A DNA stretch of 64,000 nucleotides from a virus (IMGVR_UViG_3300025909_000005); one strand, 5' to 3'; positions 18,341 to 58,171 are shown, counted from the stretch's first letter. The notes: generated by a model from the sequence alone, not told the origin. Numbers and translations are program-made.

Positions 18341-18618
18341 GTTCGCAAGGCTCTCGTTGAGATGGTCTTGCCTTGCTCATTCATGATGTAGACGTTGCCC
18401 AAGATCGGGTACGTCTCCTGCGCGTCGCTGTTCTCCCGAATGACGATCATGACTGAGGCGTTGCCGTTGAAGTCGCTTGGATTGTAGGGGTTCGTGTAGA
18501 GCGAACCCCACTCGCCGAACTGAATCCGATCCTTCGGACCAACGGTGATGAGGGAGTAGTTCTTGCCCTCGTAAACGTCAGCCGTATCTTCGGCCGACAT
18601 CATCTTGATGTAAAGCAT
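18331..18618 (-). CDS. hypothetical protein, late-promoter driven
   Basis: SD AGGA on minus strand; TAAATA on minus strand at 18660-18665. Confidence 0.65.
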   Translation of the reverse strand: MLYIKMMSAEDTADVYEGKNYSLITVGPKDRIQFGEWGSLYTNPYNPSDFNGNASVMIVIRENSDAQETYPILGNVYIMNEQGKTISTRALRTHD

Positions 18619-30067: not shown

Positions 30068-31192
30068 ATGGCATCGAAAGTTCTGACCGTCTACATCGGT
30101 CGTTTCCAACCACTTCACAACGGACATGTCCACGTTCTGACGAATGCGCTTCGCACGTCGGACCACACGCTGGTGCTCGTCGGCAGCTCGTTCCGTTCCC
30201 GCACGATCAAGAACCCCTTCACGTTCGACGAACGTAAGGAAGTGCTCATGGCCTGGCACGACGACTCGGAGCTCGACAAGAAGAGCCTGACCGTTCTGCC
30301 ACTGCGTGACCAGCCCTACTCAAACTCCAAGTGGATCGAGTCGGTGCAGAAGACGGTCCACAACTTCATGATCGAGAAGCATCTCGACCCCCGCACCACT
30401 GAAGTTCGCCTCACCGGTTCCGACCGTGACGAGTCGACCTGGTACCTGCAGGCCTTCCCGCAGTGGAAGCTGGCGCTCTGCGCTCCAGTTCCTGCCGGCC
30501 GCGACCTCTCAGCCACCAACCTCCGTCATGAGCTGTTCGGCGCCATGCTTGGCACGGCCATCAAGGACGACACCCCTCGCATCACGCAGTTCTTCATCGA
30601 GAAGTTCCGATTCGGCGAGGAGTTCGCGCTCCTCAAGGCCGAGTACGACTTCATCGAGAAGTACAAGAAGGCCTGGAAGGCAGCACCCTACGCACCCTAC
30701 TTCCTGACCGTCGACGGCGTCGTGATCCAATCCGGCCACGTGCTGGTCGTCCGCCGCGGCGCCCTCCCTGGCAAGGGCCTGCTCGCTCTGCCTGGTGGCT
30801 TCCTCGATCAGAACGAGCGCCTCGCCGACGGCGTGGTTCGTGAACTCATCGAGGAAACGGGTCTGCGTCTGGCTGACGGCAAGAACGCCGAACGCATCAC
30901 GAAGTCGATGCTGCAGGGCGCCATCAAGGCGAAGGAAATCTTCGACGATCCGAATCGCTCGCTGCGTGGTCGCACCGTGACGACTGCCTACCTCATCCGC
31001 CTCGATGACACCAAGCCGCTTCCGAAGGTGAAGGGCCAGTACGCACCGCTCCACGAGACCGGCGGCAAGCTCGTCGTCGAAACGGCTGACGCGTTCTGGA
31101 TGCCGATCGCCGACGCGCTGCGCGACAGCTCGGTGTGGTTCGAGGACCACTACTACATTCTCGAGACGATGCTCGGCTTTGCGAAGGACTGA
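30068..31192 (+). CDS. bifunctional NMN adenylyltransferase / NUDIX (ADP-ribose) hydrolase (NadM-Nudix, NatV-like)
   Basis: GRFQPLHNGH (HxGH), LSATNLR, ALPGGF....E......RELIEETG, WFEDH. Confidence 0.92.
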   Translation: MASKVLTVYIGRFQPLHNGHVHVLTNALRTSDHTLVLVGSSFRSRTIKNPFTFDERKEVLMAWHDDSELDKKSLTVLPLRDQPYSNSKWIESVQKTVHNFMIEKHLDPRTTEVRLTGSDRDESTWYLQAFPQWKLALCAPVPAGRDLSATNLRHELFGAMLGTAIKDDTPRITQFFIEKFRFGEEFALLKAEYDFIEKYKKAWKAAPYAPYFLTVDGVVIQSGHVLVVRRGALPGKGLLALPGGFLDQNERLADGVVRELIEETGLRLADGKNAERITKSMLQGAIKAKEIFDDPNRSLRGRTVTTAYLIRLDDTKPLPKVKGQYAPLHETGGKLVVETADAFWMPIADALRDSSVWFEDHYYILETMLGFAKD

Positions 31193-33524: not shown

Positions 33525-33579
33525 TGTACGTGGGTCCTACTCTGTGATACAATGGAGTAGGACCCACAATGGAGCAAGC

Positions 33580-34887
33580 ATGGCAGGATCACGAATCGCA
33601 CCAGTACTCGCAGTGATTGGAGCTGGTTACGGTGACGAAGGCAAGGGCCTCTTCACCGACTACCTTGCCCGCAAGCACTCGAGATTCCAAGGCACGAAGG
33701 TTCCTCTCGTCATGAGAGGAAACGGTGGTGCACAAGCTGGCCACACTGTCGTCGATGGCACGAGGCGTCACGTCTTTGGCCACATCGGCTCAGGCACGAT
33801 GGCTGGTGCTCGTACCTACCTCGCTGAGAACTTCATCGTCAACCCCATGGCCTTCGCTCCTGAACTGGAGAAGGTGAAGGCCCTTGGCATGGACCCGACC
33901 GTCTATGCCCACTCCAACTGCCGTGTCACAACGATCTTCGACATGGCGCTGAATTCCCTGGCCGAGCTCTTCCGAGGTCGCGCCCTTCACGGCTCATGCG
34001 GCTACGGCATCAACGAGACCGTGACTCGCAACGAGGCGGGCTACTACCTCACGATGGCTGACATCCGTGCAGGCACCGCAGTTCTCGCAACCAAGCTCGA
34101 GGACATCCTTCGCGAGTACGTACCGACCCGGCTCTATGCCATCGGCTACCAGGAATGGGACCGCGACTCGGCCACCCCGCAAGTCAGAGCGCAGGCGGAC
34201 GTCTACCTCAAGACCGTCATGGTGCAACAGGACGATCGTGCGGCCCACTGCAGCGCCCTCGCATCGAGGATGCAGAAGGACGTTCACTCGATCCACCTCT
34301 ACGACCCGAAGTCGTTCACGTGGTCAGGCGAGCCGATCATCTACGAAGGTGCACAAGGCCTGCTGCTCGACGAGTACCACGGTACGTTCCCGCACGTGAC
34401 CCGCTCCGTGACAGGCGTCGCCTCCGCTGTTCGTGCTGCCGCTGAAGCTGGACGCACTCAAGTTCAGCCGTACTACATCACGCGCTGCTACACGACCCGC
34501 CACGGTGCGGGTCCCCTGTACAAGGAAGGCGAGATCATCACCGATGGCGTCCGCTCGCTTCCTGATGAAACGAACATGCCGAACCAGCACCAGGGCACGC
34601 TGCGCTTCGCACCGCTGAATCTCGGCCACCTTCGGAACGCAATCGAGCGAGACATGGAACGTGCACGTCACGTCGGCCAGGTCTTCAACATCGAGGTCCT
34701 TCAGCCGAAGCTTGTCGTCACCCACCTCGACCAGCTCGGCCGCAAGGTGCAGTTTGCTGGATGGAGCTACCTTGTCGAGAGTGAAGCTGCTGCGAAAGCA
34801 ATCGGCAACTTCCTCGAGGTGTCCGTCTCGCACGTTTCCTACGGACCTGAAGCAAAGGATGTACGAGAGTTCACCTCTGAGCTATAA
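33580..34887 (+). CDS. purA: divergent adenylosuccinate synthetase (PurA-like)
   Basis: GAGYGDEGKG, NGGAQAGHT, EGAQGLLLD, PHVTRS, TRHGAGP, THLD. Confidence 0.8.
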   Translation: MAGSRIAPVLAVIGAGYGDEGKGLFTDYLARKHSRFQGTKVPLVMRGNGGAQAGHTVVDGTRRHVFGHIGSGTMAGARTYLAENFIVNPMAFAPELEKVKALGMDPTVYAHSNCRVTTIFDMALNSLAELFRGRALHGSCGYGINETVTRNEAGYYLTMADIRAGTAVLATKLEDILREYVPTRLYAIGYQEWDRDSATPQVRAQADVYLKTVMVQQDDRAAHCSALASRMQKDVHSIHLYDPKSFTWSGEPIIYEGAQGLLLDEYHGTFPHVTRSVTGVASAVRAAAEAGRTQVQPYYITRCYTTRHGAGPLYKEGEIITDGVRSLPDETNMPNQHQGTLRFAPLNLGHLRNAIERDMERARHVGQVFNIEVLQPKLVVTHLDQLGRKVQFAGWSYLVESEAAAKAIGNFLEVSVSHVSYGPEAKDVREFTSEL

Positions 34888-34946: not shown

Positions 34947-36419
34947 ATGTCTGAAAAACTCGTTCCCTACACCCCGAAGCGCCTCACGTACAACCCGCTG
35001 ATGCGCACGGACAGCTACAAGTTCTCGCACGCCTTCTCGTACCCGAGCAACGCCACTGGCATGTTCTCGTACATCGAGGCCCGCACCGGCGGCCAGGACA
35101 TCATCGTCCCTTTCGGCCTGCAGATCTGGCTGAACGAACACCTCTCCATTCCCATCACCGCAGAGAACATCGACGAGGCCGAGCTCTTCGCAGCTGCCCA
35201 CGGTGAACCCTTCAGCCGCGCGGCCTGGGAGAAGGTCCTCAACAAGTATCACGGCTACATGCCCGTGACCATCCGCGCCGTTCCCGAAGGCACGCCGGTT
35301 CCGAGCGGCAACGCCCTCGTGACCATCCAGTGCGAGGACGAAGAGCTCGTCGGCGAAGTCAACAGGATTCTCGTCTTCTGGATCGCCTCGTACCTCGAGA
35401 CGCAGATGCTGCGCGCCTACTGGTACCCGACCACTATCGCCACCCTCGACCGTGCGACGAAGCTGCAGATCAAGCGCTTCTACGAAATCGCCGGTGCCGA
35501 CCTCAACTTCCTGCCCTTCTCGCTGCACGACTTCGGCGGCCGCGGCGTTTCGTCCGGCGAGACCGCTGCCATCGGCGGTGCCGCCCACCTGCCGTCCTTC
35601 ATGGGCTCGGACACGGTCGAAGGCGTTCGCTACGCCAACTTCTACTACGACGAGGCCATGTCGGCCTTCTCCGTCCGTGCGACGGAGCACTCGGTCGCCT
35701 GCTCGTTCGGCCTGTCGGATGAAGACGAGATCGCGTACATCGCCCACCAGCTGAAGGTCTTCGAAGGCAATGGCAACATCATCTCGATGGTCGGCGACTC
35801 GAAGAGCATCAAGCGCTTCGCAAAGCACCTGTGCACGACCTTCCGTGACCAGATCATGGACCTCCATGAGCGCCTCGGCATGAAGATCGTCTGCCGCCCG
35901 GACTCCGGCGATCCGCTCGAGATCATTCCGATGCTGCTGAAGATGTTCGCTGACGCGTTCCCGACCACGAAGACCAGCGCCGGCTACATCAAGCTCTACC
36001 CCGGCATCGGCATCCTGCAGGGCGACGGCGTCGATCGCATGACGATCCTCACCATCCTCGGCAACATCATGGCCATGAACTTCTCGCCGGACAACATCGT
36101 CTTCGGTTCCGGTGGCGGCCTGCTGCAGAAGGTCAACCGCGACACGTTCAAGTTCGCGATGAAGGCCTCTGCGATCAAGGTCGACGGCAAGTGGAAGGGC
36201 ATCGTCAAGGACCCGGAAACCGACCCCGGCAAGAAGTCGAAGGAAGGCATCCTGACCCTCGCGACGAACGGCCTCGGTGACTACCTCACGGTGCGCCTCG
36301 ACAACTCCGAGAACCCGTACCCGCGCGGCTATCACGATGCCATGGTCACGGTCTACGACAAGGGCCAGTTCTACAACCATACGACGCTGGCTGAAGTCCG
36401 CGCCCGCTGCGCGGTCTAA
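34947..36419 (+). CDS. nadV: nicotinamide phosphoribosyltransferase (NAMPT/NadV)
   Basis: TDSYKFSH, LHDFGGRG, ATEHS, RPDSGDP, QGDG, FGSGGGLLQKVNRDT, KDP.TDPGKKSK.G. Confidence 0.93.
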   Translation: MSEKLVPYTPKRLTYNPLMRTDSYKFSHAFSYPSNATGMFSYIEARTGGQDIIVPFGLQIWLNEHLSIPITAENIDEAELFAAAHGEPFSRAAWEKVLNKYHGYMPVTIRAVPEGTPVPSGNALVTIQCEDEELVGEVNRILVFWIASYLETQMLRAYWYPTTIATLDRATKLQIKRFYEIAGADLNFLPFSLHDFGGRGVSSGETAAIGGAAHLPSFMGSDTVEGVRYANFYYDEAMSAFSVRATEHSVACSFGLSDEDEIAYIAHQLKVFEGNGNIISMVGDSKSIKRFAKHLCTTFRDQIMDLHERLGMKIVCRPDSGDPLEIIPMLLKMFADAFPTTKTSAGYIKLYPGIGILQGDGVDRMTILTILGNIMAMNFSPDNIVFGSGGGLLQKVNRDTFKFAMKASAIKVDGKWKGIVKDPETDPGKKSKEGILTLATNGLGDYLTVRLDNSENPYPRGYHDAMVTVYDKGQFYNHTTLAEVRARCAV

Positions 36420-39576: not shown

Positions 39577-40221
39577 ATGCCAAACGCAGTTGTAAAGAGC
39601 TACGCCAAGAAGACTGGAAAGTCGCCTGAGCACATCGAAGGATGGTGGAAGGAGGCCGAGAAGGAAGCCAAGAAGAAGTTCCCAAAGAAGGGCCCTCACT
39701 ACTGGGCGTACGTGAACGGCATCGTGAAGCGCCGTGGTGGCATCAAGGAGGTCATCGGCTTCCGTGACTTCGTTGACCTGCTCTCAGAAGAGGATGGCGG
39801 TGAGAAGGAGTCAGCGCTCTCCAAGATGTCCAAGGAACACGGTCCTGTCCTGGACAGGATCGAGAAGATCAAGGACCTTGGGCGCACCTTCGACAAGGCT
39901 CTCAAGGCTGACGGAGATGAGAAGGCGAAGGGCAACTACGCGCACTGGCTGAAGACGACCGACAAGTACCGAGTCGCCTACTTCACCGACACCGATCTCG
40001 ACATTGAAACCGTCCTCGTCTTCCGCGGCCACAAGTGCTTCGGCCTGGCATCGAAGAACGACAGCGACGCAATCATCGACTTCAAGTTCGTGCCAATGGA
40101 ACGCAGCGACTGGCAGGCGATCGAGGACTTCAGCTTGGACAACCTTGACTCCTCGGCTACAATCACTGATGAGAACCTCGACCACTATGTTGAGATGATT
40201 CTCCAGGCCACTCATAAATAA
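39577..40221 (+). CDS. hypothetical protein
   Basis: SD AAGGA; basic N-terminal half. Confidence 0.7.
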   Translation: MPNAVVKSYAKKTGKSPEHIEGWWKEAEKEAKKKFPKKGPHYWAYVNGIVKRRGGIKEVIGFRDFVDLLSEEDGGEKESALSKMSKEHGPVLDRIEKIKDLGRTFDKALKADGDEKAKGNYAHWLKTTDKYRVAYFTDTDLDIETVLVFRGHKCFGLASKNDSDAIIDFKFVPMERSDWQAIEDFSLDNLDSSATITDENLDHYVEMILQATHK

Positions 40222-40260
40222 ACCAGAGCACAGGTTGAGGCCTGTGCTATAATAGAAACA

Positions 40261-40560
40261 TACTGCAGCAATGCAGTTGTATTGTCGTAATTCGGCATGA
40301 CTTGAAGGATTTGAGACGCGGGTTCGATTCCCGCCGGCTCCACCACAAATCATCTTAGCAAGAACCTTACGCCAACGTTGTGGCAAGGAAAGCAGCAAGG
40401 GTGATTTGTCATGGGGCCGACCAGGCTATCGATCAGGTTACGGAGATGATTGACGCGACACGTCGTAGTGACGTTAAAAACTCGTCTAGTAAACGCAAAC
40501 GACTCCAACTACGCGATCGCCGCTTAATAACCGGCCCGCGCGCGGCATAAGCCACCGTGT
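40261..40560 (+). ncRNA. ssrA: circularly permuted (two-piece) tmRNA: acceptor piece ending CCA at 40345, intervening segment, coding piece from G40413; tag ANDSNYAIAA at 40495-40524
   Basis: GACGCGGGTTCGATTCCCGCCGGCTCCACCA precedes GGGGCCGA; 7-bp acceptor stem with G3.U70; P2 pairing TCAGGTTA/TGACTTGA; TATAAT at 40248; outer ends approximate. Confidence 0.88.
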
Positions 40561-40574
40561 AAAAGAATGAGCTA

Positions 40575-40615
40575 GGACGGACCCGAGGAGCAATCTTTGG
40601 GTCCGTCTGCCTTTC
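40575..40615 (+). terminator. terminator-like hairpin after tmRNA
   Basis: GGACGGACCC...GGGTCCGTCT hairpin. Confidence 0.5.
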
Positions 40616-40676
40616 CAGGTCGATGGACCTGACTTTCGCTTCCATCGTAAATACGTTCAACTTCAAAGGAGTTGAG

Positions 40677-41111
40677 ATGATGACCCACCTTCTGGCCGCT
40701 GTAGTTGCAGTTGGCCTGGCCGCAGCAACACCCACACCTCGTCAACCCGTGTGGGATGACATAGCGAGTTCGAAGGTGTTCAAGATCAGTCTGGACCTAA
40801 AGTCGGTAGACGTCAAGGCAGACAACACGGTTCATTCTCAGCTGAAGGTCACGTACAACGTGCCCATCCCTGTGAAGGGAAAGAAGAAGACAGGGCACTA
40901 CTACATCGAGCAGGTAACTGCAGACTGCGGTGCCGACAAGCTCGTCGTGACTGGTGCCACACTGTTCTCAAAGGACGGTGAGCCTTTGGCGCAAGACGAC
41001 CACCTCAACATGGACCTGCCAAACAACCACATCGATGGCACGTTTGTCACGAGCTTCATGGACCTCATGTGTAACGGCGGCAAAAATACGATTCCTGCGA
41101 TCAACGTTTGA
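40677..41111 (+). CDS. secreted protein (adhesin-E-like beta protein)
   Basis: signal peptide, two Cys, TAAATA at 40648. Confidence 0.65.
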   Translation: MMTHLLAAVVAVGLAAATPTPRQPVWDDIASSKVFKISLDLKSVDVKADNTVHSQLKVTYNVPIPVKGKKKTGHYYIEQVTADCGADKLVVTGATLFSKDGEPLAQDDHLNMDLPNNHIDGTFVTSFMDLMCNGGKNTIPAINV

Positions 41112-41140
41112 GTTATAATGACTCATCGACGGTAAATACT

Positions 41141-41259
41141 GAAGGATGTTGTAGCTCACCGGGAGAGCGGCCCCGAGGACGGGGTGTCCAATCATGTTCA
41201 GTCGGGTTCGCCCGTCATGCGTGATAGCGTAGGTGGTTCGATTCCATCCACAACCTTCA
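41141..41259 (+). ncRNA. tRNA-like element with expanded central region; identity undetermined
   Basis: D-arm GCTC/GAGC and T-arm GGTGG-TTCGATT-CCATC present; no canonical anticodon arm. Confidence 0.4.
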
Positions 41260-41274
41260 GTGTTATTGTTCGAC

Positions 41275-41346
41275 GCCTCGGTAGCTCAGTGGTAGAGCGG
41301 ATGCCTCTAAAACGTCGGGTCGTGGGTTCGATTCCCACCCGGGGCA
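41275..41346 (+). tRNA. amber suppressor tRNA, anticodon CUA (copy 1; CCA not encoded)
   Basis: GCCTCGG/CCGGGGC acceptor; anticodon loop CT-CTA-AA; canonical D and T arms; C-A mismatch at 31:39. Confidence 0.85.
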
Positions 41347-41355
41347 CAGATAAGG

Positions 41356-41568
41356 ATGACCATGGGACGTAGACTTTCCCTGCATGAAATGAATGCCATC
41401 AGGCATGAGGACGATGTTCGCAACTCGCAGATCAAGCGAGGCGAATGGAAGCCGAAGACAAACAACAACTATCACTGCGTGTGTGGTTGTGGTGCGTTCG
41501 CATGCGTGTTCGTGAGCTCAATTCCGCAGACGGTCCTGCCCATGGACGAACGATCAAATGTCTCTTAG
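41356..41568 (+). CDS. small Cys-containing protein between the two suppressor tRNAs
   Basis: SD AAGGA; HCVCGCG; stop TAG lies inside the downstream tRNA. Confidence 0.55.
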   Translation: MTMGRRLSLHEMNAIRHEDDVRNSQIKRGEWKPKTNNNYHCVCGCGAFACVFVSSIPQTVLPMDERSNVS

Positions 41569-41634
41569 CTCAATGGGTAGAGCGACGGTCTCTAAAACCG
41601 TATGTTCCGGGTTCGAGCCCCGGAGGGACGGCCA
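41559..41634 (+). tRNA. amber suppressor tRNA, anticodon CUA (copy 2)
   Basis: perfect anticodon stem ACGGT/ACCGT, loop CT-CTA-AA; weak T1.G72, G73, CCA encoded. Confidence 0.9.
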
Positions 41635-43141: not shown

Positions 43142-43498
43142 ATGCAATCGTAGATCCGCGAAGACGCCAAGACCTATCTGTACACCATCTCTCGCCGCGA
43201 CATCCCTCTCGCGCAACAAGCTGTGCAAGCCGGCCACGCCGCCCTTGAACACGCTTACCTCTACGGCCGTCCGGCCGACCATCACCCCTCCTACATTCAC
43301 CTGACGATTCGAGACAAGGAACGGCTCGAGAAGCAACGGCGTGCGCTCCAAGAAGCTGGCATTCCGACGGCCGAGTTCCACGAACCGTACAAGGACTGGG
43401 GTCTCACCGCCATTTCCTGCCTCCTCACCGAGGAACAACGTCACCACCTGAAGGGGCTCCAGCTGTGGCGCCTCCCCACCCAAGGAGAAGAAGCATGA
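43142..43498 (+). CDS. Pth2-like peptidyl-tRNA hydrolase with in-frame TAG at codon 4 (43151-43153); needs amber readthrough
   Basis: SD AAGGA then ATG CAA TCG TAG ATC...; YTISRRDIPLAQQAVQAGHAA...F.EP...LTAI matches the Pth2 fold, with its first strand upstream of the ORF-track start at 43223. Confidence 0.75.
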
Positions 43499-44459: not shown

Positions 44460-45029
44460 ATGACGTAGGTTTTCTCCCCCAAGCTGCAGGCTCTTCGTGA
44501 GAAGATGGCCGCCTGCAACCAGACCCAAGGCCAGACCATTCTCCAGCACGGCGAGTCCGTGGCCGAGTGGTACAAGGACCTGATTGGTGCACGCACACGT
44601 GAGTGGCGCCTGCCTGACTGGTTCGATCCCGCCCTCTTCGAGCTCTGCCCAGATGTGGGGACGATGGAGCGCTACCACATCTACCATGATTGTGGTAAGC
44701 CGTACTGCCGTACGGTTGACGAAGAAGGTCGTCAACACTTCCCTGACCATGCCCGTATCAGCGCCTCCATCTGGCGCGTGACCGGTGGCGACGCGGCTGT
44801 TGCTCGTCTCATCGAACACGACATGGACATGCACACCCTCAAGCCGGCAGATGCCGACACCTACCTGCACCTGGACATTGCTCCAGCTCTGCTTCTCACC
44901 GCCCTTGCTGAACTGCACTCCAACGCCGACATGTTCGGCGGGATCGAGAGCACGTCCTTCAAGATCAAGTTCAAGAACCTCAACAAGCTCGGCAACCGCC
45001 TCATCAACCGCATCAAGGAGATCGCATAA
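44460..45029 (+). CDS. HD-domain phosphohydrolase with in-frame TAG at codon 3 (44466-44468); needs amber readthrough
   Basis: SD AAGGA then ATG ACG TAG GTT TTC...in frame with ORF 44505; H...YHDCGKP...HFPDHA...IEHDM HD motifs. Confidence 0.72.
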
Positions 45030-50148: not shown

Positions 50149-50223
50149 GGGTCCTTAGCTCAGCGGTAGAGCCCCTCCCTTACAAGGAGATTGTCGTAGG
50201 TTCGATCCCTACAGGACCCACCA
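50149..50223 (+). tRNA. tRNA-Val(UAC)
   Basis: cloverleaf, loop CT-TAC-AA, CCA. Confidence 0.85.
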
Positions 50224-50291
50224 TATCAAAGCGCTCCATGGTAGCGTAAGTCTTTTCATGCGGCCGCCGGTCGAGCGTTTTGATATGGTAA

Positions 50292-50416
50292 GGTGTTTGT
50301 GGGCAAGAGACGAAGCCGCCTGCGATTAAGTGGGTTCCAAGTCAATGAGTAGCGTCACCCTTGGGGTCGCGAAAAGCGAGCAAACACGCTGGTTTGAATC
50401 CAGCCAAACACCACCA
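50292..50416 (+). ncRNA. tRNA-like RNA with about 55-nt expansion; identity undetermined
   Basis: acceptor GGTGTTTG/CAAACACC-A-CCA and T-arm present; anticodon arm non-canonical. Confidence 0.5.
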
Positions 50417-50514
50417 TATCAAAGCACACTCGGTTGTGGCAAGATCAACCAACGTCTGCAGCGTATCCTGCCCAAGGGATCGTGGTTGCGCCTAGTGTGC
50501 TTTGATATGGTAAT

Positions 50515-50603
50515 GTACGTGCTGTCCTAGGAGAGATAAGTGGATTGTAAATCCGCGGCATAAAAGTAAGTCTGAGTGGGTTCGAATCCCACCGCGTACA
50601 CCA
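50515..50603 (+). tRNA. tRNA-Tyr(GUA)
   Basis: loop TT-GTA-AA, long variable arm, CCA. Confidence 0.75.
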
Positions 50604-50612
50604 ACAGAATTT

Positions 50613-50688
50613 GGGCTTGTAGTATTGGGGTTACGGCAGCGCCTTGCAAGTGCTGTGTCAGTGGGGTTCGATTCCCCCCAGGTCCACC
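50613..50688 (+). tRNA. tRNA-Ala(UGC), atypical
   Basis: G3.U70, loop CT-TGC-AA, CCA. Confidence 0.7.
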
Positions 50689-50796
50689 AAAATTCGCTGC
50701 GGCAACGGTCCTTCATGACGACTGCAGAGAAATGGAACATGAAGGCTGGTCGAACTACCTCCTTGCGAGACCTGCAAAATAAATCGTGGAGGTAAT

Positions 50797-50889
50797 GGAG
50801 ATGTTAGCCGAGTTGGCCTAGCGGCAGCGGTCTTGAAAACCGAAGGTTCAGAAATGGACGTGTGAGTTCGAGTCTCACCATCTCCGCCA
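50797..50889 (+). tRNA. tRNA-Ser(UGA)
   Basis: loop CT-TGA-AA, long variable arm, G73-CCA. Confidence 0.85.
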
Positions 50890-51103
50890 TTGAGTTTGTT
50901 TTGATCTAAGTGTGGCTATTGGTTGCTGACAAAGTTCTGCGCTGTCTAGAGCAAGGGACCGAATCGGTGGCTGATATCGTGAAGTTCAAGTAGGGTTCGA
51001 TTCCCAGCGGTTGAGGCCGTACAGGTGTCTTGCATGAATCGTTTGCCAGTCAGGAGCTAGACCTCCACCGATCCGTAACGGGCGCTTAGATCAAAACGAA
51101 TTT

Positions 51104-51179
51104 GGGGGATTAGCTCAGCTGGGAGAGCGGCTGCTTTGCAAGCAGTAGGTCAACGGTTCGATCCCGTTATTCTCCACCA
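51104..51179 (+). tRNA. tRNA-Ala(UGC)
   Basis: canonical bacterial-like tRNA-Ala with G3.U70. Confidence 0.92.
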
Positions 51180-51263
51180 AAACAAGAAGGTTGTAGGTAG
51201 ACGGTCTCTATGGCGCGTACCCGGAAGGGCAACGGCTACGAGTTGGAACCTTCACGAATAATT

Positions 51264-51340
51264 GTCGGGGTGGGAGAGTGGTCCATCCGAGGAGCTGCAA
51301 CCTCCTAGACGCATCGGTTCGATTCCGGCTCCCGACTCCA
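51264..51340 (+). tRNA. tRNA-Cys(GCA)
   Basis: loop CT-GCA-AC, U73-CCA. Confidence 0.85.
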
Positions 51341-51419
51341 AACATGCAACCGATCTGGCAGGCTTATCGGCAAAATATTCGCCTGTCAAACCTTTTTGTT
51401 GCACTTACACGAGACCTCG

Positions 51420-51815
51420 ATGATCTGCAAAGGCTGCGATAAGGAAACTTCGAATCTGAAATACTGTGACAATGCTTGTCAGCAAGTAGCTCAGACGAAG
51501 GCCAAAGTTGAAGCGTTCCTCGAAGGAAAATACGTCGGCAAATTCATGCAGTACGGGACCGGTTCCTGGCCGCGTAGAATGCTGATCGAACATTTTGGTT
51601 ACAAGTGCAATGCGCCGGGTTGCACTGTCGCTGATACGTGGCTAGGAAAACCAGTCACGTTGGAAGTGAACCACATTGATGGCATTGCGACAAACAATGT
51701 CCTAACGAATTTAGAATTCCTGTGCCCCACCTGTCACTCGCAGACGCCCAACTTTCGGGCTCTCAACAAGGTTTCAGTTAGAACGCACAGGAAGCCCCGA
51801 GCCCCTTTAGCATAG
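51420..51815 (+). CDS. HNH endonuclease (free-standing, in tRNA array)
   Basis: CKGC...YCDNAC; LEVNHIDG..TNNVLTNL..LCPTCH; stop TAG inside tRNA-Thr. Confidence 0.85.
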   Translation: MICKGCDKETSNLKYCDNACQQVAQTKAKVEAFLEGKYVGKFMQYGTGSWPRRMLIEHFGYKCNAPGCTVADTWLGKPVTLEVNHIDGIATNNVLTNLEFLCPTCHSQTPNFRALNKVSVRTHRKPRAPLA

Positions 51816-51875
51816 TGGCACTGCATCCGCCTTGTAAGCGGGAGATCGTCTGTTCGATTCAGACAAGGGGCACCA
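51801..51875 (+). tRNA. tRNA-Thr(UGU)
   Basis: loop CT-TGT-AA, CCA. Confidence 0.85.
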
Positions 51876-51883
51876 AGAATTTT

Positions 51884-51970
51884 GCGGTCGTGATGGAATT
51901 TGGTAGTCTTCACGCGTTGAGAACGCGTGGCTCTTAGAGCGTGCGGGTTCGACTCCCGCCTTCCGCACCA
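51884..51970 (+). tRNA. tRNA-Leu(GAG)
   Basis: loop TT-GAG-AA, long variable arm; pyrimidine mismatches at 5:68 and 6:67. Confidence 0.8.
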
Positions 51971-51976
51971 AGTTAT

Positions 51977-52055
51977 CTGTGTGTATTGTCAGTCTGGTTA
52001 GACGGCTGAGTTTGGAACTCGGAGGTCGCAGGTTCAAATCCTGCCACACAGACCA
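51977..52055 (+). tRNA. tRNA-Pro(UGG)
   Basis: C1-G72, loop TT-TGG-AA. Confidence 0.8.
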
Positions 52056-52083
52056 AGTTATTGTGATACAATGAAAGTTCAAT

Positions 52084-52160
<77 letters not shown>

Positions 52161-52215
52161 TTCACCTACTCGCGTGAAGTAAACGCAGCTGACATCTTCA
52201 ACAACGGAGTATGTC

Positions 52216-52497
52216 ATGCGAGTATCAGTGAAGCAAGTTGTTAACGTAGCATTCGCCCACCATGGCGCTCGTACGTTGTCTCCTGGCTGCCTTGGCGAAA
52301 ATCCTTCGGGATGGACGATCACAGGTGAAGTGATGGAAGACTACGTTGAGTGGGTCAACTACTTCGAAGCAACGCATCCTACTCTCGGGTGGGTACGCGG
52401 CGACTACGAAGGAATTGTCGAAGCGAAGTCGAAGAAGGCGTACGCGCACTTCATTGAACACCACCCTCCACAAGAGTGGGACTACTGGGACATCTAA
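52216..52497 (+). CDS. hypothetical protein
   Basis: 93 aa between tRNAs. Confidence 0.6.
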   Translation: MRVSVKQVVNVAFAHHGARTLSPGCLGENPSGWTITGEVMEDYVEWVNYFEATHPTLGWVRGDYEGIVEAKSKKAYAHFIEHHPPQEWDYWDI

Positions 52498-52566
52498 CGC
52501 CCTTCCTCTGCGTCATGAGGCTGCTTACCGCCAACGGGGAGAGCGTAAGTTAACAGTTGGATTTTA

Positions 52567-52642
52567 GCGGGCGTAATTCAGTTGGTAGAATGCTTCCTTG
52601 CCAAGGAAGTCGTCGTCGGTTCGAGTCCGATCACCCGCTCCA
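52567..52642 (+). tRNA. tRNA-Gly(GCC)
   Basis: canonical, U73-CCA. Confidence 0.92.
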
Positions 52643-52647
52643 AATTT

Positions 52648-53079
52648 ATGACACCAATCCAAGATTACATTCAGCTCCCACGAGAAACAAGACGTTCGCA
52701 TCTTGATCTCACTGCTGAGTGCTCGAAGATCGGTGGAACGTCGAAGGAGTTCAAAGGGCTTCTTGCTTACCATCTTGGAACAACGATTCCATCTGGTCGT
52801 CAAGTTTTCCTCTGCCATGCATGCCATAATGGAGCTTGCTCCAATGTCAAGCACCTCTACTGGGGAACTCCAAAGGACAACTACATTGACTGTGTAGAAG
52901 ATCGTGGAACACTCCATGAAAGAAGTTTGAAAATTCACGGTCAAGAGTTTCTTGCAAAGCGCTACACGAGTGGAAGCTCAGCAGGCGGAAAGGGAAATTC
53001 TGGAAGACCAAAATCCGAAGAGCACAAGCAAAAGATCGCTGAATCTCTGCGGAAGAAGAAAAATGCGGCTATGGTGTAG
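52648..53079 (+). CDS. HNH (His-Me finger) endonuclease
   Basis: LCHACHNGACSNVKHLYWGTPKDN; stop TAG inside tRNA-Gly. Confidence 0.8.
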   Translation: MTPIQDYIQLPRETRRSHLDLTAECSKIGGTSKEFKGLLAYHLGTTIPSGRQVFLCHACHNGACSNVKHLYWGTPKDNYIDCVEDRGTLHERSLKIHGQEFLAKRYTSGSSAGGKGNSGRPKSEEHKQKIAESLRKKKNAAMV

Positions 53080-53138
53080 TGGTAACCCATGACATTGCCA
53101 ATGTTAAGACGCGAGTTCGATTCTCGCTAGCCGCTCCA
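53065..53138 (+). tRNA. tRNA-Gly(GCC)
   Basis: loop TT-GCC-AA, U73-CCA. Confidence 0.88.
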
Positions 53139-53296
53139 AACACGTTCTGGTTTCGCTAATGAAGCGTAGTCAGATAGACAGACGATCCCGTGTAGTTCGT
53201 CTGCGACATGCGCCAGCACGGTGGAAAAGTCCACAACTGTGGCCAGCGAGCATTGCTGATTACGAGTAGGGAGTGAAGCTCCGCGGCCCTACACAT

Positions 53297-53383
53297 GCGG
53301 GTGTGGTCCATAGGCGGGCACCAGCCTTCCAAGCTGGCAGTGCGCAAGCACGCAAGTGGGTTCGAGTCCCATCACCCGCTCCA
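53297..53383 (+). tRNA. tRNA-Gly(UCC) with long variable arm
   Basis: loop CT-TCC-AA; GTGC-GCAA-GCAC variable hairpin. Confidence 0.8.
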
Positions 53384-53389
53384 AATTCT

Positions 53390-53475
53390 GGGTTCTGAGC
53401 AGCACTGGCGACTGCACCGGACTGTAAATCCGACGCCTTCGGGCATACTTGGTTCGACTCCAAGAGGACCCACCA
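53390..53475 (+). tRNA. tRNA-Tyr(GUA)
   Basis: loop CT-GTA-AA, long variable arm. Confidence 0.88.
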
Positions 53476-53480
53476 AATTT

Positions 53481-53555
53481 GCGGGAGTAGCTCAGTGAAA
53501 GAGCAGCCGGTGTATAACCGGACGGTCGTAGGTTCAAGTCCTACCTCCCGCACCA
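53481..53555 (+). tRNA. tRNA with atypical anticodon loop (TGTATAA; possibly UAU)
   Basis: good acceptor, D and T arms plus CCA; lacks U33 in the 7-nt loop reading. Confidence 0.6.
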
Positions 53556-53840
53556 GGAATTTCAGAAGTACATGCCGCGGCGGAAGCACGACGGCTCCAA
53601 GAATTCCCACGTGGCGGCGTGAATCCGCTAGTTTGTATAGTCTGTCACTTAACATGACTTTCGTCGCCATTACGTTACTGGTAGGCGTCAACTCAGGACC
53701 CCTGGCTTTCGACTCAAAATCGAAGGAGATACGAAGCTGCTGATGTCGGTGTTGTGAGAACCTTTTCGTTAGGGGAACTCTCTAGGTGCTTGAGCCAAAT
53801 CTCTTGAAGTCGTGAGGGTGGAACCTGGCGCAGAAATTTC

Positions 53841-53957
53841 GGGGACCTAGCTCAGTAGGTAGAGCACTGGATGAAAACGTTGCTGCATAGGTCGACCTTC
53901 AATGCACAACGAAGTACGTACCGGCTGTCCGAGGTTCGAGCCCTCGGGTCCCCACCA
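53841..53957 (+). tRNA. tRNA-Phe(GAA) with 43-nt insertion 3' of the anticodon
   Basis: GGGGACC/GGTCCCC acceptor, loop AT-GAA-A, insert 53877-53919. Confidence 0.65.
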
Positions 53958-54110
53958 GAATTTGACAACCGATAGATTAGGATTATCATCCAAGCAGGTA
54001 TACGTAGGTTCGAATCCTACACGGTGCGCAAGTGCCGTTCGACAAGTGGTAAAGTCACCCGCCTCGCCGCAAGGCATTTTCCTGTCGCTCCTTTGTTGTC
54101 ACTTAGATTT

Positions 54111-54196
54111 GCGGTTGTGATGGAATCTGGTAGTCTTCCTGTGCTCAGAACGCAGGGCCTTCGGGCGTGTGGGTTCGAATCCCACCTTCCGCACCA
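54111..54196 (+). tRNA. tRNA-Leu(CAG)
   Basis: loop CT-CAG-AA; U.U mismatches at 5:68 and 6:67. Confidence 0.85.
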
Positions 54197-54613
54197 AACA
54201 AGTGTCCTACTCTAGGATTAGTCATAGGAACGACCGGGAAATCATAACCGGATGTAAGCAAACCTATGGAGTGAGAGAGGAATGAGATTTTCCTCACGAT
54301 TTAGCTCACGTACCATGTGTACGAGGAGTATACGGCATCGTTCTGCGATGCTAGCCTATTTGATTGATGCCCTTAGCGGGGACAGTGTGGTGGCACGGAT
54401 CGTTTTGCGGTAGTCACCTATGCATGAAGGTTCTTCCCAAGAGTAAGCAAACGTGAGGGGAGACGTCAATCACCAGTTGTCGTAACTGCAGCCTAAGGGT
54501 ATGCAGTACCGGCGCTTCGCCTGCCAATGGCTCCAGGTAGGGACGCACAGTGTGCCGAATCCGTTCAAGCCGGTTTGAGAATAAGGCTGCGTGCCGAATA
54601 TAGGACCACAATT

Positions 54614-54705
54614 GGAGACATGGCAGAGAGGCCGATTGCGCCGGTTTGCTAAACCGGAGATCCACGAAAGTGGGTCCGTGGGTTCGAATCCCACTGTCTC
54701 CTCCA
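54614..54705 (+). tRNA. tRNA-Ser(GCU)
   Basis: loop TT-GCT-AA, long variable arm. Confidence 0.88.
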
Positions 54706-54712
54706 GAATTTT

Positions 54713-54797
54713 GCACTCGTGGCGTAATTGGTAGCCGCGCTAGCTTGAGGTGCTAGAGGGGAAACCCGTGCTGGTTCGAGTCCAGTCGAGTGCACCA
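54713..54797 (+). tRNA. tRNA-Leu(GAG)
   Basis: loop TT-GAG-GT, long variable arm. Confidence 0.88.
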
Positions 54798-54925
54798 GAA
54801 TGAACTCCCCTTCGAGGGAATCGCCGAACGTGGTAGGCGTAGAGCGCATGGCTAAGATCGATGATGCAGTGCGAGGCTAAGTAAAGACAACTCTTTCGGG
54901 TTATCAGACCAAACCCGACCAACAT

Positions 54926-55017
54926 GGAGAAATGGCAGAGAGGCCGATTGCACAACCTTGGAAAGGTTGAGACCGGGTCAAACCGGTCCGTGGGTTCGAA
55001 TCCCACTTTCTCCTCCA
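54926..55017 (+). tRNA. tRNA-Ser(GGA)
   Basis: loop TT-GGA-AA, long variable arm. Confidence 0.88.
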
Positions 55018-55133
55018 TGAAAGAAGACTGGCGTTCCATGCCCGGCCAAAAACCGTAATGCACATGAAAGTGTGGGGCTGTCAGGGAGAAATATGGTGGA
55101 AGTAAATCTCCTTCATCTTCATGAACAAGATTT

Positions 55134-55208
55134 CAGGGTGGGAGGCGTGTGGCAGCCGATGACGTCCGGAGCGTTGTAGTCAGGGTTCGACTCCCTGCAC
55201 CCTGACCA
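55134..55208 (+). tRNA. degenerate tRNA, possibly Pro(CGG)
   Basis: CAGGGTG/CACCCTG-A-CCA and T-arm; irregular D and anticodon arms. Confidence 0.5.
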
Positions 55209-55329
55209 GATTTACCTCGCGAGAGGGCTGCCCCTTGTCTACGGACCTGGGGACCAGCAAAGGAACAGCACATCGTGGTTTGCGGCTGTTCCCTTCACCA
55301 GCACAGGCTGGAGGAAGTCCACGAGATCA

Positions 55330-55405
55330 CGGTGCATGGAGTGAGAGGTTAACCGGCTGTGTAACATACAGTCTGATGTAGGTTCGAGTCCTACTGCACC
55401 GACCA
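55330..55405 (+). tRNA. atypical tRNA, loop GT-AAC-AT (possible AAC anticodon)
   Basis: CGGTGCA/TGCACCG-A-CCA and T-arm. Confidence 0.55.
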
Positions 55406-55410
55406 ATTTC

Positions 55411-55490
55411 GTTTCGATAGCTCAAGGGACAGAGCACGTGGCCCAAGAGGTAGGTACGATGGAAAGCGGTTCGACTCCGCAACGAAACAT
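55411..55490 (+). pseudogene. degenerate tRNA-like sequence
   Basis: TAGCTCAAGGGACAGAGC D-arm and GCGGTTCGACTCCGC T-arm; no clear anticodon arm or CCA. Confidence 0.4.
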
Positions 55491-55659
55491 CCAATTTGAA
55501 GCGTTAGCATGAGAGAATCCTGCATGCCTAATTGTCGTTTGTCCGAGGTCCGACTGGTTGTCGATGAACGATTACAGCGACGTGGATCGGCCGATCCTAG
55601 CTGTTTGTGACTACCTGGTTGTGGGGAGTAACGGTCCCACCGCTTCAATTCAATTTCAT

Positions 55660-55734
55660 GGGGGCAGCAATGGGTTGCGGTTCTCGCTGGCAGCGAGGAT
55701 GTCTAGACGAGTTCGATTCTCGCGGTCTCCACCA
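55660..55734 (+). tRNA. tRNA-Ala(GGC), atypical D-arm
   Basis: G3.U70, loop CT-GGC-AG, CCA. Confidence 0.7.
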
Positions 55735-56083
55735 GATTTGATCCAAGGCATTAGCCGCCCCTAGGCAAGTCCCAACGAAAGTTGAGGTGGAACGCAGTGT
55801 TGAAGCGTTGAGGATCGCCCGAACAAGTCACGGCTTGGAACTCCGCAGTGCGCCATGGAACTCTGCGTCGATAAGAGAAGGCAGTCGTGCACCAATTTGA
55901 GAGCTAGATGCGGATACGGGACACCCACGTCGGAAAACCCTTCCACCGCCATGACAGAACGTAGACGAGCTAGTGGATGCAGCATGAAACCTCGTAGGCG
56001 TGGTTGCCGTAGAGGAAGTTCCCTGCTCTAGGCCAACCTACGCAGGCAATCACTGCTCTCAATGAACATGGTATAATGAACTC

Positions 56084-56299
56084 ATGATCCTCTGCAGCTG
56101 CGCGAACATTCCTGAGAGCGTTGCTCGAGAGAAGCTTAAGACGCAAACGCTGTCTGAGTTCATGATCGAAACGAATTGCGCGATGCAGTGCGGCTCCTGC
56201 TGGCAGGACCTCCTTGACATCGCAGATGAATACGACAACCGATCGACCAGGGTTATCTCCCATTCGACAACCCCTGGTCAACCTCCTTCGTTGTCATGA
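56084..56299 (+). CDS. bfd: Bfd-like (2Fe-2S) ferredoxin
   Basis: MILCSC...CAMQCGSC (CxC...CxxC) pattern; TATAAT upstream. Confidence 0.8.
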   Translation: MILCSCANIPESVAREKLKTQTLSEFMIETNCAMQCGSCWQDLLDIADEYDNRSTRVISHSTTPGQPPSLS

Positions 56300-56303
56300 T
56301 TGC

Positions 56304-56380
56304 GCCCTTGTACGCTAATCGGCAGTGCGGCTCCCCTTAAAATGGAGTGGTTGTGGGCTCGAATCCCACCTTGGGCACCA
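56304..56380 (+). tRNA. tRNA-Leu(UAA) with short variable loop
   Basis: loop CT-TAA-AA; U.U mismatches at 5:68 and 6:67. Confidence 0.65.
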
Positions 56381-56566
56381 ACCCTGTTGGCAAATGTTAG
56401 AGCAACCGCTTGATCTTGGATTATCTACTTTTATTGGTTAAAAACCCGGATACGTTCGACTCGTGTCATCCCTTTATGCCGGTGCACGGAAGGGAATTCT
56501 CCAAATCGCCTTTTGTTGCCCTAACATTTGCCAATGATAAATAGTCCTCCAACAGGAGGACGATGA

Positions 56567-56911
56567 ATGTTGCTGAACGAACTGCTCGAGCTAAACGAAA
56601 TGGCCGAGCTTGAAGAACTCTTCGAGAAGGAATGGTCTGACGCGGTGACGCACCGCAAGCCAGGCACCTTCGCCCCAAAGGGAACGCACTCCAAGTCCGC
56701 TGAAGAGATCTTCAAGATCTACAAGCGACACAGGGTCTCTCCACATGGAGACGGCTCTGCAATTCAGATGCTGCAGTTCTTCATCAACCGTGCCGGAAAA
56801 CGTCTGAAGCCGGAACGGAAACAGGAACTTGAGAAGGCCATTCGAATGCTTCAGGCGGACAACGCCAAGATGAAGGCAGAGAAGAAGGCCAAGGAAAAGA
56901 AGGACGACTGA
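56567..56911 (+). CDS. DUF3175-like protein with MLLNELLE leader
   Basis: KEWS..VT...SAEEI...SAIQMLQFFINRAGK.L..ERK..LEKA; TAAATA at 56538. Confidence 0.75.
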   Translation: MLLNELLELNEMAELEELFEKEWSDAVTHRKPGTFAPKGTHSKSAEEIFKIYKRHRVSPHGDGSAIQMLQFFINRAGKRLKPERKQELEKAIRMLQADNAKMKAEKKAKEKKDD

Positions 56912-56915
56912 TTGT

Positions 56916-56989
56916 AGCGGGCGAGTGTGATGGTAGCACGTTGGGCTCATAACCCAGAGGGCCGGTTCGATTCCGAGGCGCCGCAACCA
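56916..56989 (+). tRNA. initiator-type tRNA-Met(CAU), irregular acceptor stem
   Basis: GGG/CCC anticodon stem with CT-CAT-AA; ACCA end. Confidence 0.7.
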
Positions 56990-57257
56990 AATCCGTAAGG
57001 ATCGTGGAGATTCGCACATCTCCTAGTATAAAGTGGGCGGCTCGCGACCGCAATGACTCGGCTACCTGAGACTTCCTAACGGTGCTCATACGCGGCTAAC
57101 AGAGTCCACGACGGGTCCTAGCCCGTCACGAACAAATGGCATGCAGACGTGTATGCAAAGTCCCACGCCGGAACCAAGGACCTTCACAGGCACCAAAGAC
57201 GGTGGGAAAAGGTGGGCGACGAACAGGGCAGAGCACCCTTCCTGTTTCACGAATTTA

Positions 57258-57336
57258 TGCGGAGGGCCGGCCAGCAGTCGGACGAGGTCTCATAAGCCAC
57301 GGTAAAGATGGGTGCGACTCCTAATCTCCGCTACCA
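57258..57336 (+). tRNA. degenerate tRNA-Met(CAU)-like
   Basis: CTCATAA loop and GCGGAG/CTCCGC acceptor with ACCA; poor T-arm. Confidence 0.4.
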
Positions 57337-57353
57337 TAACTAGAAGGAAGCCC

Positions 57354-57683
57354 ATGAAGAAGATCCTCCTCGCGCTCAGTGCGCTCGTCTCCATTTCCGC
57401 CCTGGCTGCTCCTCAAGCTCCGGCCCCACAAGGAAGCTTTGAAACCCGCCCCGGCTGTATCTGGTCTCATGACGTTGCGCGATGCGCCGTGGACAATCAC
57501 TCACGGGTAAACTTGAGCTGCACCGTGCATGTCTTCGGTCGCACCGAAAGGGGCTTCAAGATCGGCAACACACGCACCGTATCGGTTCCAGCCTTCAAGT
57601 ACAACGACGACGCTCGCCTCTATGCCGCTGAAGGCGACAAGCTCGTCAAGGTCGATGCAGAAGCAACCTGCTCGCCTGAATGA
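57354..57683 (+). CDS. secreted protein
   Basis: signal peptide; four Cys; SD AAGGA. Confidence 0.7.
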   Translation: MKKILLALSALVSISALAAPQAPAPQGSFETRPGCIWSHDVARCAVDNHSRVNLSCTVHVFGRTERGFKIGNTRTVSVPAFKYNDDARLYAAEGDKLVKVDAEATCSPE

Positions 57684-57692
57684 AAACGCGCG

Positions 57693-57765
57693 GTCTCGGT
57701 ATCTTAACTGGTAAAGACGCCTCCCTTATAAGGGGTAGATCTAGGTTCGAATCCTAGTCGAGACA
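57693..57765 (+). tRNA. tRNA-Ile(UAU) candidate (CCA not encoded)
   Basis: GTCTCGG/TCGAGAC, loop CT-TAT-AA. Confidence 0.7.
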
Positions 57766-57776
57766 CACAGAACAAC

Positions 57777-57853
57777 GCGGGTGTGACGCAATTGGTAGAC
57801 GTACTGGATTTAGAATCCAGGTCCTGAGGGTTCGAGTCCCTCCACCCGTACCA
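57777..57853 (+). tRNA. tRNA-Leu(UAG) with short variable loop
   Basis: loop TT-TAG-AA, CCA. Confidence 0.85.
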
Positions 57854-57858
57854 AACAT

Positions 57859-57948
57859 GGATTGTGCGGAGCATGGCGCTCAACTGCCCTCGAAAAGCAG
57901 CGTGTCGGTGATGAGCCGGCAGGGGTTCGATTCCTCCACTCTCCGCCA
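57859..57948 (+). tRNA. tRNA-Ser(CGA)
   Basis: loop CT-CGA-AA, long variable arm, G73-CCA; pyrimidine mismatches at 4:69 and 5:68. Confidence 0.75.
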
Positions 57949-58093
57949 AGATATGGAAGACGCGGCGTCGAAACCGCGTGGTAGTTCGGCCGAACGGTCC
58001 GGTAGCGGGTGGCCACCTGCGAAAGACTTAGAACCTGATTTGGCTCGCGGGGTTCGACTCCTCGCAGGTAAAACCAACTTCCATTTGAACTCT

Positions 58094-58171
58094 GCCCTTG
58101 TACGCTAATTGGAAGACGCGCGCGAGCTCAAACCTCGTGGGTTGTCGGTTCGAATCCGACCTTGGGTACCA
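58094..58171 (+). tRNA. tRNA-Leu(CAA) with short variable loop
   Basis: loop CT-CAA-AC; U.U mismatches at 5:68 and 6:67. Confidence 0.75.

Follow-up and report, generated by a model that had tools for sequence, protein, structure and literature searches.

Two tRNA(CUA) genes beside a permuted tmRNA

The window analyzed here, i.e., the whole 64-kb stretch of viral DNA, holds 28 RNA genes according to ARAGORN: a permuted tmRNA, two tRNA(CUA) genes, and 25 ordinary tRNAs. The two tRNA(CUA) genes lie on the + strand at 41275-41347 (copy 1) and 41559-41634 (copy 2), where ARAGORN called each as tRNA(cta) and Rfam family RF00005 scored them at 62.4 and 61.9 bits, respectively, against a gathering score of 29, confirming the initial annotation, which had proposed two distinct amber-suppressor-type tRNA genes. 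Both are built as canonical elongator tRNAs, with a cloverleaf, a 7-bp acceptor stem, G18G19, U33, and a TTCGA T loop, and both carry a suppressor-type anticodon, CUA in a 7-nt loop with A36-A37-A38. As had been noted earlier and as can be read directly from the sequence of each gene, the anticodon loop CU-CUA-AA is common to the two copies while their bodies differ: copy 1 has G1-C72, A73, and a C31.A39 mismatch and continues with CAG after A73, i.e., without an encoded CCA, and copy 2, with U1.G72 and G73, does encode CCA. ARAGORN labels both genes “Pyl”, a label that derives from the anticodon alone. The pylT architecture is atypical, with a short D loop lacking G18G19 and a 3-nt variable loop, and is accompanied by pylS and pylBCD genes, while in both copies here the D loop is standard and contains GG, the variable loop is 5 nt long, and the T loop is TTCGA; on this architecture, assignment as tRNA-Pyl was rejected.

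The pair stands apart from the main tRNA array and next to the tmRNA, as first described: it starts 0.65 kb after the tmRNA, and the next tRNA (50149), 8.5 kb downstream, begins the array of ordinary tRNAs that spans 50149-58171. The tmRNA itself is circularly permuted (two-piece) and lies at 40181-40618 on the + strand with the tag ANDSNYAIAA (ARAGORN, 40253-40618; Rfam tmRNA_permuted RF04321, 102 bits; beta_tmRNA, 92 bits), and the order of tmRNA followed by suppressors also occurs in related loci fetched for comparison (L005-L010, L015, L016/17, L020, and L021). Directly upstream of the tRNA unit is a putative promoter, the 20-mer TGAGTTATAATGACTCATCG (41109-41128, + strand), which is kept in three of these loci (L005, L007, and L008) and occurs in identical form before a very high-GC3 gene at 22054; its function is inferred. 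The motif TATAATGANTNA within it is found four times in the window versus 0.01 expected, and the sites of the promoter-like motif TATAATGA(A/C)T are at 9293, 18725, 21978, and 41114. Three of these four sites precede the highest-GC3 genes, which start at 9347, 18757 (an RNA ligase with PHA02142 OB fold plus RNA_ligase, 18757-20154), and 22054 (an OmpA-domain protein), and the fourth precedes the suppressor tRNA unit. The earlier suggestion that the two tRNAs act at different times appears unlikely, because a single promoter-like site precedes both copies, which together span 520 nt.

Two further elements complete the unit. Between the promoter-like site and copy 1 lies a tRNA-like element (41136-41264, + strand) with a D arm, a T arm, and an extended acceptor-like stem, which is without an anticodon loop and has a hairpin with a 4-nt loop plus an extra arm where the anticodon arm would be. 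It folds at -49.3 kcal/mol (z -2.6), its Rfam tRNA match is weak (15 bits, E 1.1), and it is a 120-nt insertion seen in this window’s variant only, being absent from L005, L007, and L008. Between the two tRNAs is a small conserved ORF of 70 aa with a CxCGCG motif (41356-41568, + strand), for which neither Pfam nor PHROG gave a match; its TAG stop falls within copy 2 (U8-A9-G10), and relatives have a longer version with a TGA stop.

Conservation of the tRNA pair

Both tRNA genes occur in the same order in five soil-metagenome variants (L005-L009), in which the unit runs from the promoter-like 20-mer through the first tRNA-CUA and the small conserved ORF to the second tRNA-CUA. Compared with its relatives, copy 1 has changed both partners of the pairs 6-67, 7-66, 28-42, and 29-41 and shows further paired changes in the T stem, with the loop CUCUAAA constant, and the copy 1 of close relatives encodes CCA, unlike that of the window. 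Copy 2 is near-identical in close relatives except at the first pair, where U1.G72 is found only in this window and all five close relatives have C1-G72. An exact-pattern search of IMG/VR with copy 2 gave no match. When 17 suppressor tRNAs are aligned together with one phage tRNA-Trp, the cloverleaf is kept (97% of cells paired, with 16 of the 21 pairs changed on both sides), a degree of pairing matched by 0 of 500 shuffles, and U33, A36, A37, and A38 are invariant across the 17 suppressors; A36-A37-A38 is the MiaA recognition motif in tRNAs for UNN codons. This comparative pattern indicates that the tRNA pair is no chance match and that its structure is under selection.

A tRNA with A73 is often paired with one with G73 (this window, L005, L014, L020, and L022), and two tRNA lineages seem to be retained, perhaps for robustness; a single suppressor tRNA suffices in many phages. 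Separately, in one locus (L028:11221-11330), Rfam and not ARAGORN reported a tRNA whose anticodon loop region contains ~36 additional nt, which may be an intron.

Charging and the inserted amino acid

In E. coli, the GlnRS identity set comprises a weak 1-72 pair, G73, U35, G2-C71, and G3-C70, and copy 2 had been proposed to carry such GlnRS-type identity. Of this set, only G73 and U35 are conserved; the weak U1.G72 pair, on which the proposal leans, is specific to the window and replaced by C1-G72 in close relatives, and position 3-70 of copy 2 is U-A. Isotype was also approached by similarity: the two copies were compared by BLAST with annotated phage tRNAs, and their identity to 155 labelled class I tRNAs of the fetched loci was computed with anticodons masked. 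The best full-length BLAST matches of copy 2 were mycobacteriophage tRNA-Trp (77-81%) and its nearest labelled phage tRNAs were Trp and Asn (0.70-0.73), and the nearest labelled tRNAs of copy 1 were Arg, Lys, and Thr; with nearest neighbors thus mixed for both copies, no amino acid was assigned in this way. Homologous proteins were likewise set aside as a guide to the amino acid, as the residues aligned to internal TAGs in three loci (L030, L039, and L043) fall at variable positions. 

Copy 2 combines a Trp-like D arm, anticodon stem-loop, and variable loop and G73 with an acceptor stem unlike that of a phage tRNA-Trp in one of the fetched loci (L012). We also observed that the 3' acceptor strand of copy 2, AGGGACG, is the 5' acceptor strand of this same tRNA-Trp(CCA) (L012, 505-580), and that the D arms and anticodon stem-loops of the two tRNAs are very alike; the strand identity might reflect coincidence or an acceptor stem that was flipped. 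In E. coli, CUA tRNAs are recognized by GlnRS and/or LysRS owing to U35 (PMC1483225), and on this precedent the inserted residue would be Gln and/or Lys. The two copies may, as had been proposed, insert different amino acids, but which residue is inserted is probably unimportant, because the UAG codons described below lie in a non-conserved N-terminal leader and because a switch from CUA to UCA, as seen in one relative below, would probably alter synthetase recognition.

Two downstream genes with an amber codon at their start

We scanned the 64-kb window for an ATG followed by an in-frame TAG within 3 codons and then a long ORF. On the + strand, this pattern occurs only at 43142 and 44460, both preceded by a strong RBS and both less than 3 kb downstream of the tRNAs.

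The first of these candidate targets (43142-43498, + strand) lies 1.5 kb downstream of copy 2 and begins, after the RBS AAGGAAG, with ATG CAA TCG TAG, such that TAG is codon 4 (43151-43153). This early TAG is conserved in metagenomic relatives. Past the TAG, the reading frame has no ATG, GTG, or TTG ahead of the conserved first strand of the protein, and any further start codon comes after this strand. Pfam gave no match for this protein or its neighbors. The family profile matches archaeal Pth2 (2zv3, E 2e-4) in an alignment that shows the GKGK loop of the archaeal enzymes shortened, and an AF2 model (pLDDT 91) gave 14 Foldseek matches at E 0.001 or better, 13 of which are chains of the Pth2/Bit1 family (probability 1.0 and TM 0.6-0.75 to 1q7s, 1wn2, 2zv3, 3erj, and 1xty); the remaining match, 2gax, is a functionally uncharacterized protein from Agrobacterium. 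On the modelled alpha/beta fold and the profile match, the product is a predicted member of the Pth2 family (hereafter PTH2-like), with putative peptidyl-tRNA-hydrolase catalysis.

The second candidate target (44460-45029, + strand) lies 2.8 kb downstream of copy 2 and begins, after the RBS GGAAAG, with ATG ACG TAG, such that TAG is codon 3 (44466-44468). Its product carries HD motifs (Pfam HD, E 0.0025) and matches PHROG 14850 (E 6e-61), and its profile matches 3wfo-3wfs (E 4e-5) over chain residues 260-385, the C-terminal part. These structures are deposited as “Poly A polymerase” and “tRNA processing enzyme”, and we take them to be a class II CCA-adding enzyme. The AF2 model (pLDDT 96) agrees, with the top 17 Foldseek matches all being 3wf* chains (TM 0.57-0.68), and the protein thus resembles the C-terminal, tRNA-binding part of class II CCA-adding enzymes (hereafter HD-type). 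An in-frame ATG follows 12 codons past the TAG, and 4 codons past it in the Xanthomonas phages XacN1 and Xoo-sp13, so this protein could arise without suppression. Judging by these models, both target proteins look like enzymes acting at tRNA 3' ends.

Early stops and anticodons across relatives

A search of IMG/VR with the PTH2-like protein returned 39 loci at 27-99% identity. In the fetched flanks, ARAGORN found tRNA(CUA) in 29 of the 39 and tRNA(UCA) in one, and after Rfam and manual checks, which added L016/L017 from Rfam and a non-canonical candidate in L035, 32-33 of the 39 loci had a suppressor tRNA; four loci (L027, L028, L047, and L048) had no CUA tRNA in the fetched flanks. The median distance to the PTH2-like gene is 450 nt for suppressor tRNAs versus 5.7 kb for other tRNAs (Mann-Whitney p 2e-16). 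Under strict criteria, an RBS-ATG followed by a stop within 8 codons opens the PTH2-like gene in at least 17 loci (~22 by eye), and three distant loci have an internal TAG instead. The HD-type gene starts with M-T-TAG or similar in most of the close and intermediate relatives, including L011, L013-L018, L020, L022-L025, and L028. In ~15 distant loci, the PTH2-like gene is without an early stop and tRNA(CUA) still lies directly downstream, which suggests that the link between gene and tRNA is older than the gating and not fully explained by it; the tRNA or its products may be substrates of the enzyme.

One lineage (L021) changed both the stops and the tRNAs. It has two tRNA(UCA) and zero tRNA(CUA), and its early stops are both TGA, with the PTH2-like gene starting ATG GAA TCG TGA and the HD-type gene M-T-W-S-TGA. 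Further, the early stop of this lineage hides no start, because GTC comes next. The acceptor stem of one of its UCA tRNAs is shared with the CUA tRNAs of L022 and L014, and the change from CUA to UCA probably changes which synthetase recognizes the tRNA. The switch was seen in this lineage only, though on two genes and two tRNAs; Agrobacterium phage Atu_ph07, a similar case with UCA (PMC6102473), was absent from the tblastn matches of either target protein, and no second TGA/UCA case was found. Among the sequences examined, the early stop was never TAA. Such a pattern of matched early stops would be difficult to account for if the tRNAs did not read these codons, and both tRNA copies appear to be in use, given that the L021 anticodons switched jointly with the stops of both targets.

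The same arrangement in cultured phages

Several cultured phages share this gene start. The PTH2-like gene begins with M-L-TAG in Ralstonia phage RsoM2USA, M-T-H-TAG in Serratia phage BF, M-A-Q-TAG in Cronobacter phage GAP32, M-T-TAG in Acinetobacter phage ME3, and M-L-TAG in Salmonella phage Arash, and tRNA(CUA) lies within the fetched flanks of BF, GAP32, ME3, and Arash. A single internal TAG interrupts the HD-type gene of BF and of GAP32, and the annotation of the gene is split there. The in-frame TAG has led to errors in GenBank (L050, RsoM2USA; L051, BF; L054, GAP32; L058, Arash), where the PTH2-like gene is missing or truncated (it is unannotated in RsoM2USA and BF) and the HD-type gene appears as two to four “hypothetical proteins”. 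In Arash, a tRNA annotated as tRNA-Phe reads CUA according to ARAGORN.

In jumbo phages of Xanthomonas and Stenotrophomonas, the HD-type and PTH2-like proteins are fused (XacN1, L052, ORF364; Xoo-sp13, L055, Xoo-sp13_327; and RAS14, L056), which implies that the two proteins act together. In frame before the fusion are M-K-TAG in XacN1, M-K-K-TAG in Xoo-sp13, and M-K-TAG in RAS14. In XacN1, M-K-TAG lies 5 codons ahead of the annotated ORF364 start, and the tRNAs of this phage are in its terminal repeats, away from the gene. The nearest cultured phages to the window are Xanthomonas and Ralstonia jumbo phages (~44% protein identity), and a neighboring gene was found in rhizosphere metagenomes and on contigs of 0.2-1 Mb.

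A proposed two-gene suppressor regulon

The tRNAs themselves, the conserved early stops, and the change of anticodon together with the stop are read directly from the genomes; from these we infer actual read-through, and we consider it likely on these sequence comparisons that both genes are functional amber-suppressor tRNAs that serve a small dedicated two-gene regulon with no change to the genetic code. A single promoter behind the phage tmRNA would drive transcription of the tRNA pair, and the tRNAs would presumably be matured by the usual processing and charged by a host synthetase. At a programmed UAG located 3-4 codons into both genes, release factor 1 would then face competition from the suppressor tRNAs, such that termination without suppression would leave a peptide of 2-3 residues and suppression would give the full protein. 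The yield of both predicted tRNA-3'-end enzymes would thereby be tied to a working suppressor tRNA, as in a translational AND gate or a feed-forward delay, and the purpose of such a gate might be to delay, to limit dose, or to sense the status of tRNA or of the release factor. Because several relatives retain TAG (TGA in L021) as an ordinary stop, suppression would have to be partial or tolerated.

A further reading, which is possible and in our view doubtful, is that the suppressors are a built-in probe of tRNA health and provide closed-loop control of tRNA repair. Read-through would require that the phage tRNA be processed, have an intact CCA, be charged, and out-compete the release factor, such that the condition of the enzymes' own substrates would determine how much of each enzyme is made. 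Two differently built tRNAs might then give robustness across hosts or against tRNA-targeting defenses, and such a controller would have been retained from soil jumbo phages to enterobacterial phages.

Code use and alternative explanations

Code use in the window bears on several alternatives to a dedicated two-gene regulon. The window (GC 57%) has ~95 convincing genes, all but two on the + strand, which stop mostly at TGA and TAA. Only two of these genes end in TAG (285-893 and 11887-12279), and each has a TAA 4-6 codons later. Among the products are an ATP-dependent DNA ligase (12319-13629), a NadR-like NMN adenylyltransferase/Nudix protein (30068-31192), an adenylosuccinate-synthetase-like protein (PurA/PurZ-type, partial profile match; 33544-34887), and NAMPT (34947-36419).

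First, the suppressors might act mainly on other messages, with the early TAGs as tolerated by-products; for example, they might read through host UAG stops in the course of takeover, with tmRNA clearing the non-stop ribosomes, or they might act as a backstop when phage genes acquire amber mutations. The large avoidance of TAG stops in the window, the TAA backing behind those that occur, and the tmRNA that adjoins the tRNAs would fit such a role, and ideas of this kind are open in the literature (PMC8386662). However, this reading would leave unexplained why the stops occur in these two genes only and at the same early position across 27-99% protein identity, why they switch to TGA together with the anticodon, and why genes and tRNAs are so tightly linked physically. 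We thus regard action on other messages as improbable for the main function, while it could be an additional role.

Second, the phage might have reassigned TAG to sense genome-wide in the style of code 15, as crAss-like and Lak phages do, with the late or lysis genes lying outside the window. Phage suppressor tRNAs are strongly associated with recoding, sometimes of late genes only (Borges et al., 10.1101/2021.08.26.457843), TAG is rare as a stop here, and the window is only 64 kb of the genome. Against this, code 11 tiles the window normally (ORFs cover 56.1 kb of the 64 kb on the + strand, versus 58.4 kb with TAG as sense), and the only in-frame TAGs found are the early ones of the two target genes. 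Two TAG-rich frames (8923-9168 and 18362-18523) were rejected as recoded ORFs, being antisense to real minus-strand genes. In relatives, whose stop usage was taken from a crude longest-ORF tiling, TAG ends roughly 5-25% of ORFs, and L021, although it carries UCA tRNAs, uses TGA as the stop of 8 of 14 ORFs. TAG depletion is thus true of the window and not a general signature of the relatives, and L021 does not avoid TGA. The GC content of 57% also differs from the low-GC start of the proposed route to recoding (10.1101/2021.08.26.457843). Overall, we rejected code-15 recoding for the window and consider it very unlikely for the phage.

Third, and to us of equally slight probability, the ATG-x-x-TAG starts might be short upstream ORFs with re-initiation downstream, the tRNAs being unrelated. 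Very short ORFs are known as regulators, e.g., the lambda bar minigenes, and in the HD-type gene an ATG that could serve as a start lies 4-12 codons past the stop. Upstream ORFs would nevertheless be free in frame and free to end in TAA, yet every case seen is in frame and uses TAG (TGA where the tRNA is UCA), and the conserved first strand of the PTH2-like protein precedes any canonical start codon.

Finally, that the tRNA genes are decaying relics or non-decoding decoys, e.g., bait for a host anticodon nuclease, might be suggested by the 31-39 mismatch and missing encoded CCA of copy 1 and by the degenerate tRNA-like element next to it, but is scarcely credible given that both copies score ~62 bits, that stems change by compensating pairs around an invariant anticodon loop, that the pair is kept in several lineages, and that both anticodons changed together in L021.

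Relation to known suppressor systems

A dedicated two-gene regulon, our preferred reading, shares elements with several known systems. As in the recoded crAss-like, Lak, and Agate phages (10.1101/2021.08.26.457843), a phage tRNA(CUA) or tRNA(UCA) would read stops within phage genes in a standard-code host, and a timing device through dependence of a gene subset on the suppressor tRNA has been proposed for those phages (10.1101/2021.08.26.457843). Unlike them, the case here has a standard code, a GC content of 57%, two genes with a single stop at codons 3-4, and linked tRNAs. Phage XacN1 (PMC5852040) is closer, being a standard-code jumbo phage with two tRNA(CUA) and a homologue of both target proteins. 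Its authors read through annotated terminal amber stops and did not identify targets of the two CUA tRNAs (PMC5852040), whereas the candidate target here is a TAG that comes early, ahead of the start given in the annotation. For Stenotrophomonas phage Summit, a similar case, targets are likewise stated to be unidentified (PMC9022506), and the phiKp24 genome paper has speculation only. Full-text literature searches found no description of early-stop targets of phage suppressor tRNAs.

Among bacterial suppressors, su7 is the E. coli tRNA-Trp with its anticodon changed from CCA to CUA. Copy 2 resembles su7-type suppressors in its Trp-like D arm, anticodon stem-loop, and variable loop and in G73, and both copies in U35 and A36-A37-A38. 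Unlike su7, a laboratory mutant, the tRNAs of the window are natural and conserved, and their acceptor stems are unrelated to that of tRNA-Trp. A synthetic coherent feed-forward loop uses a suppressor tRNA to remove leaky expression (PMC7969014), and the phage module would follow the same logic, in which the protein requires both mRNA and tRNA; unlike the synthetic loop, the phage module would be natural, ancient, and placed on tRNA-3'-end enzymes.

Implications for jumbo phages

Phage suppressor tRNAs are themselves known and are annotated in many standard-code jumbo phages; what is new here is the proposed two-gene suppressor regulon in a standard-code genome, with a specific conserved pair of targets named for these tRNAs. 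The proposal is directly testable in cultured phages of Serratia, Cronobacter, Acinetobacter, Salmonella, Ralstonia, and Xanthomonas, and it exposes systematic annotation errors, in which the PTH2-like gene is lost or shortened and the HD-type gene broken up.

Together, if right, these observations would answer a published question, namely the role of suppressor tRNAs in phages with a normal code. They would provide a natural counterpart to the suppressor-tRNA gate of synthetic biology and would connect suppressor tRNAs with the repair of tRNA ends and, through it, possibly with the struggle of phages against host defenses that target tRNAs.
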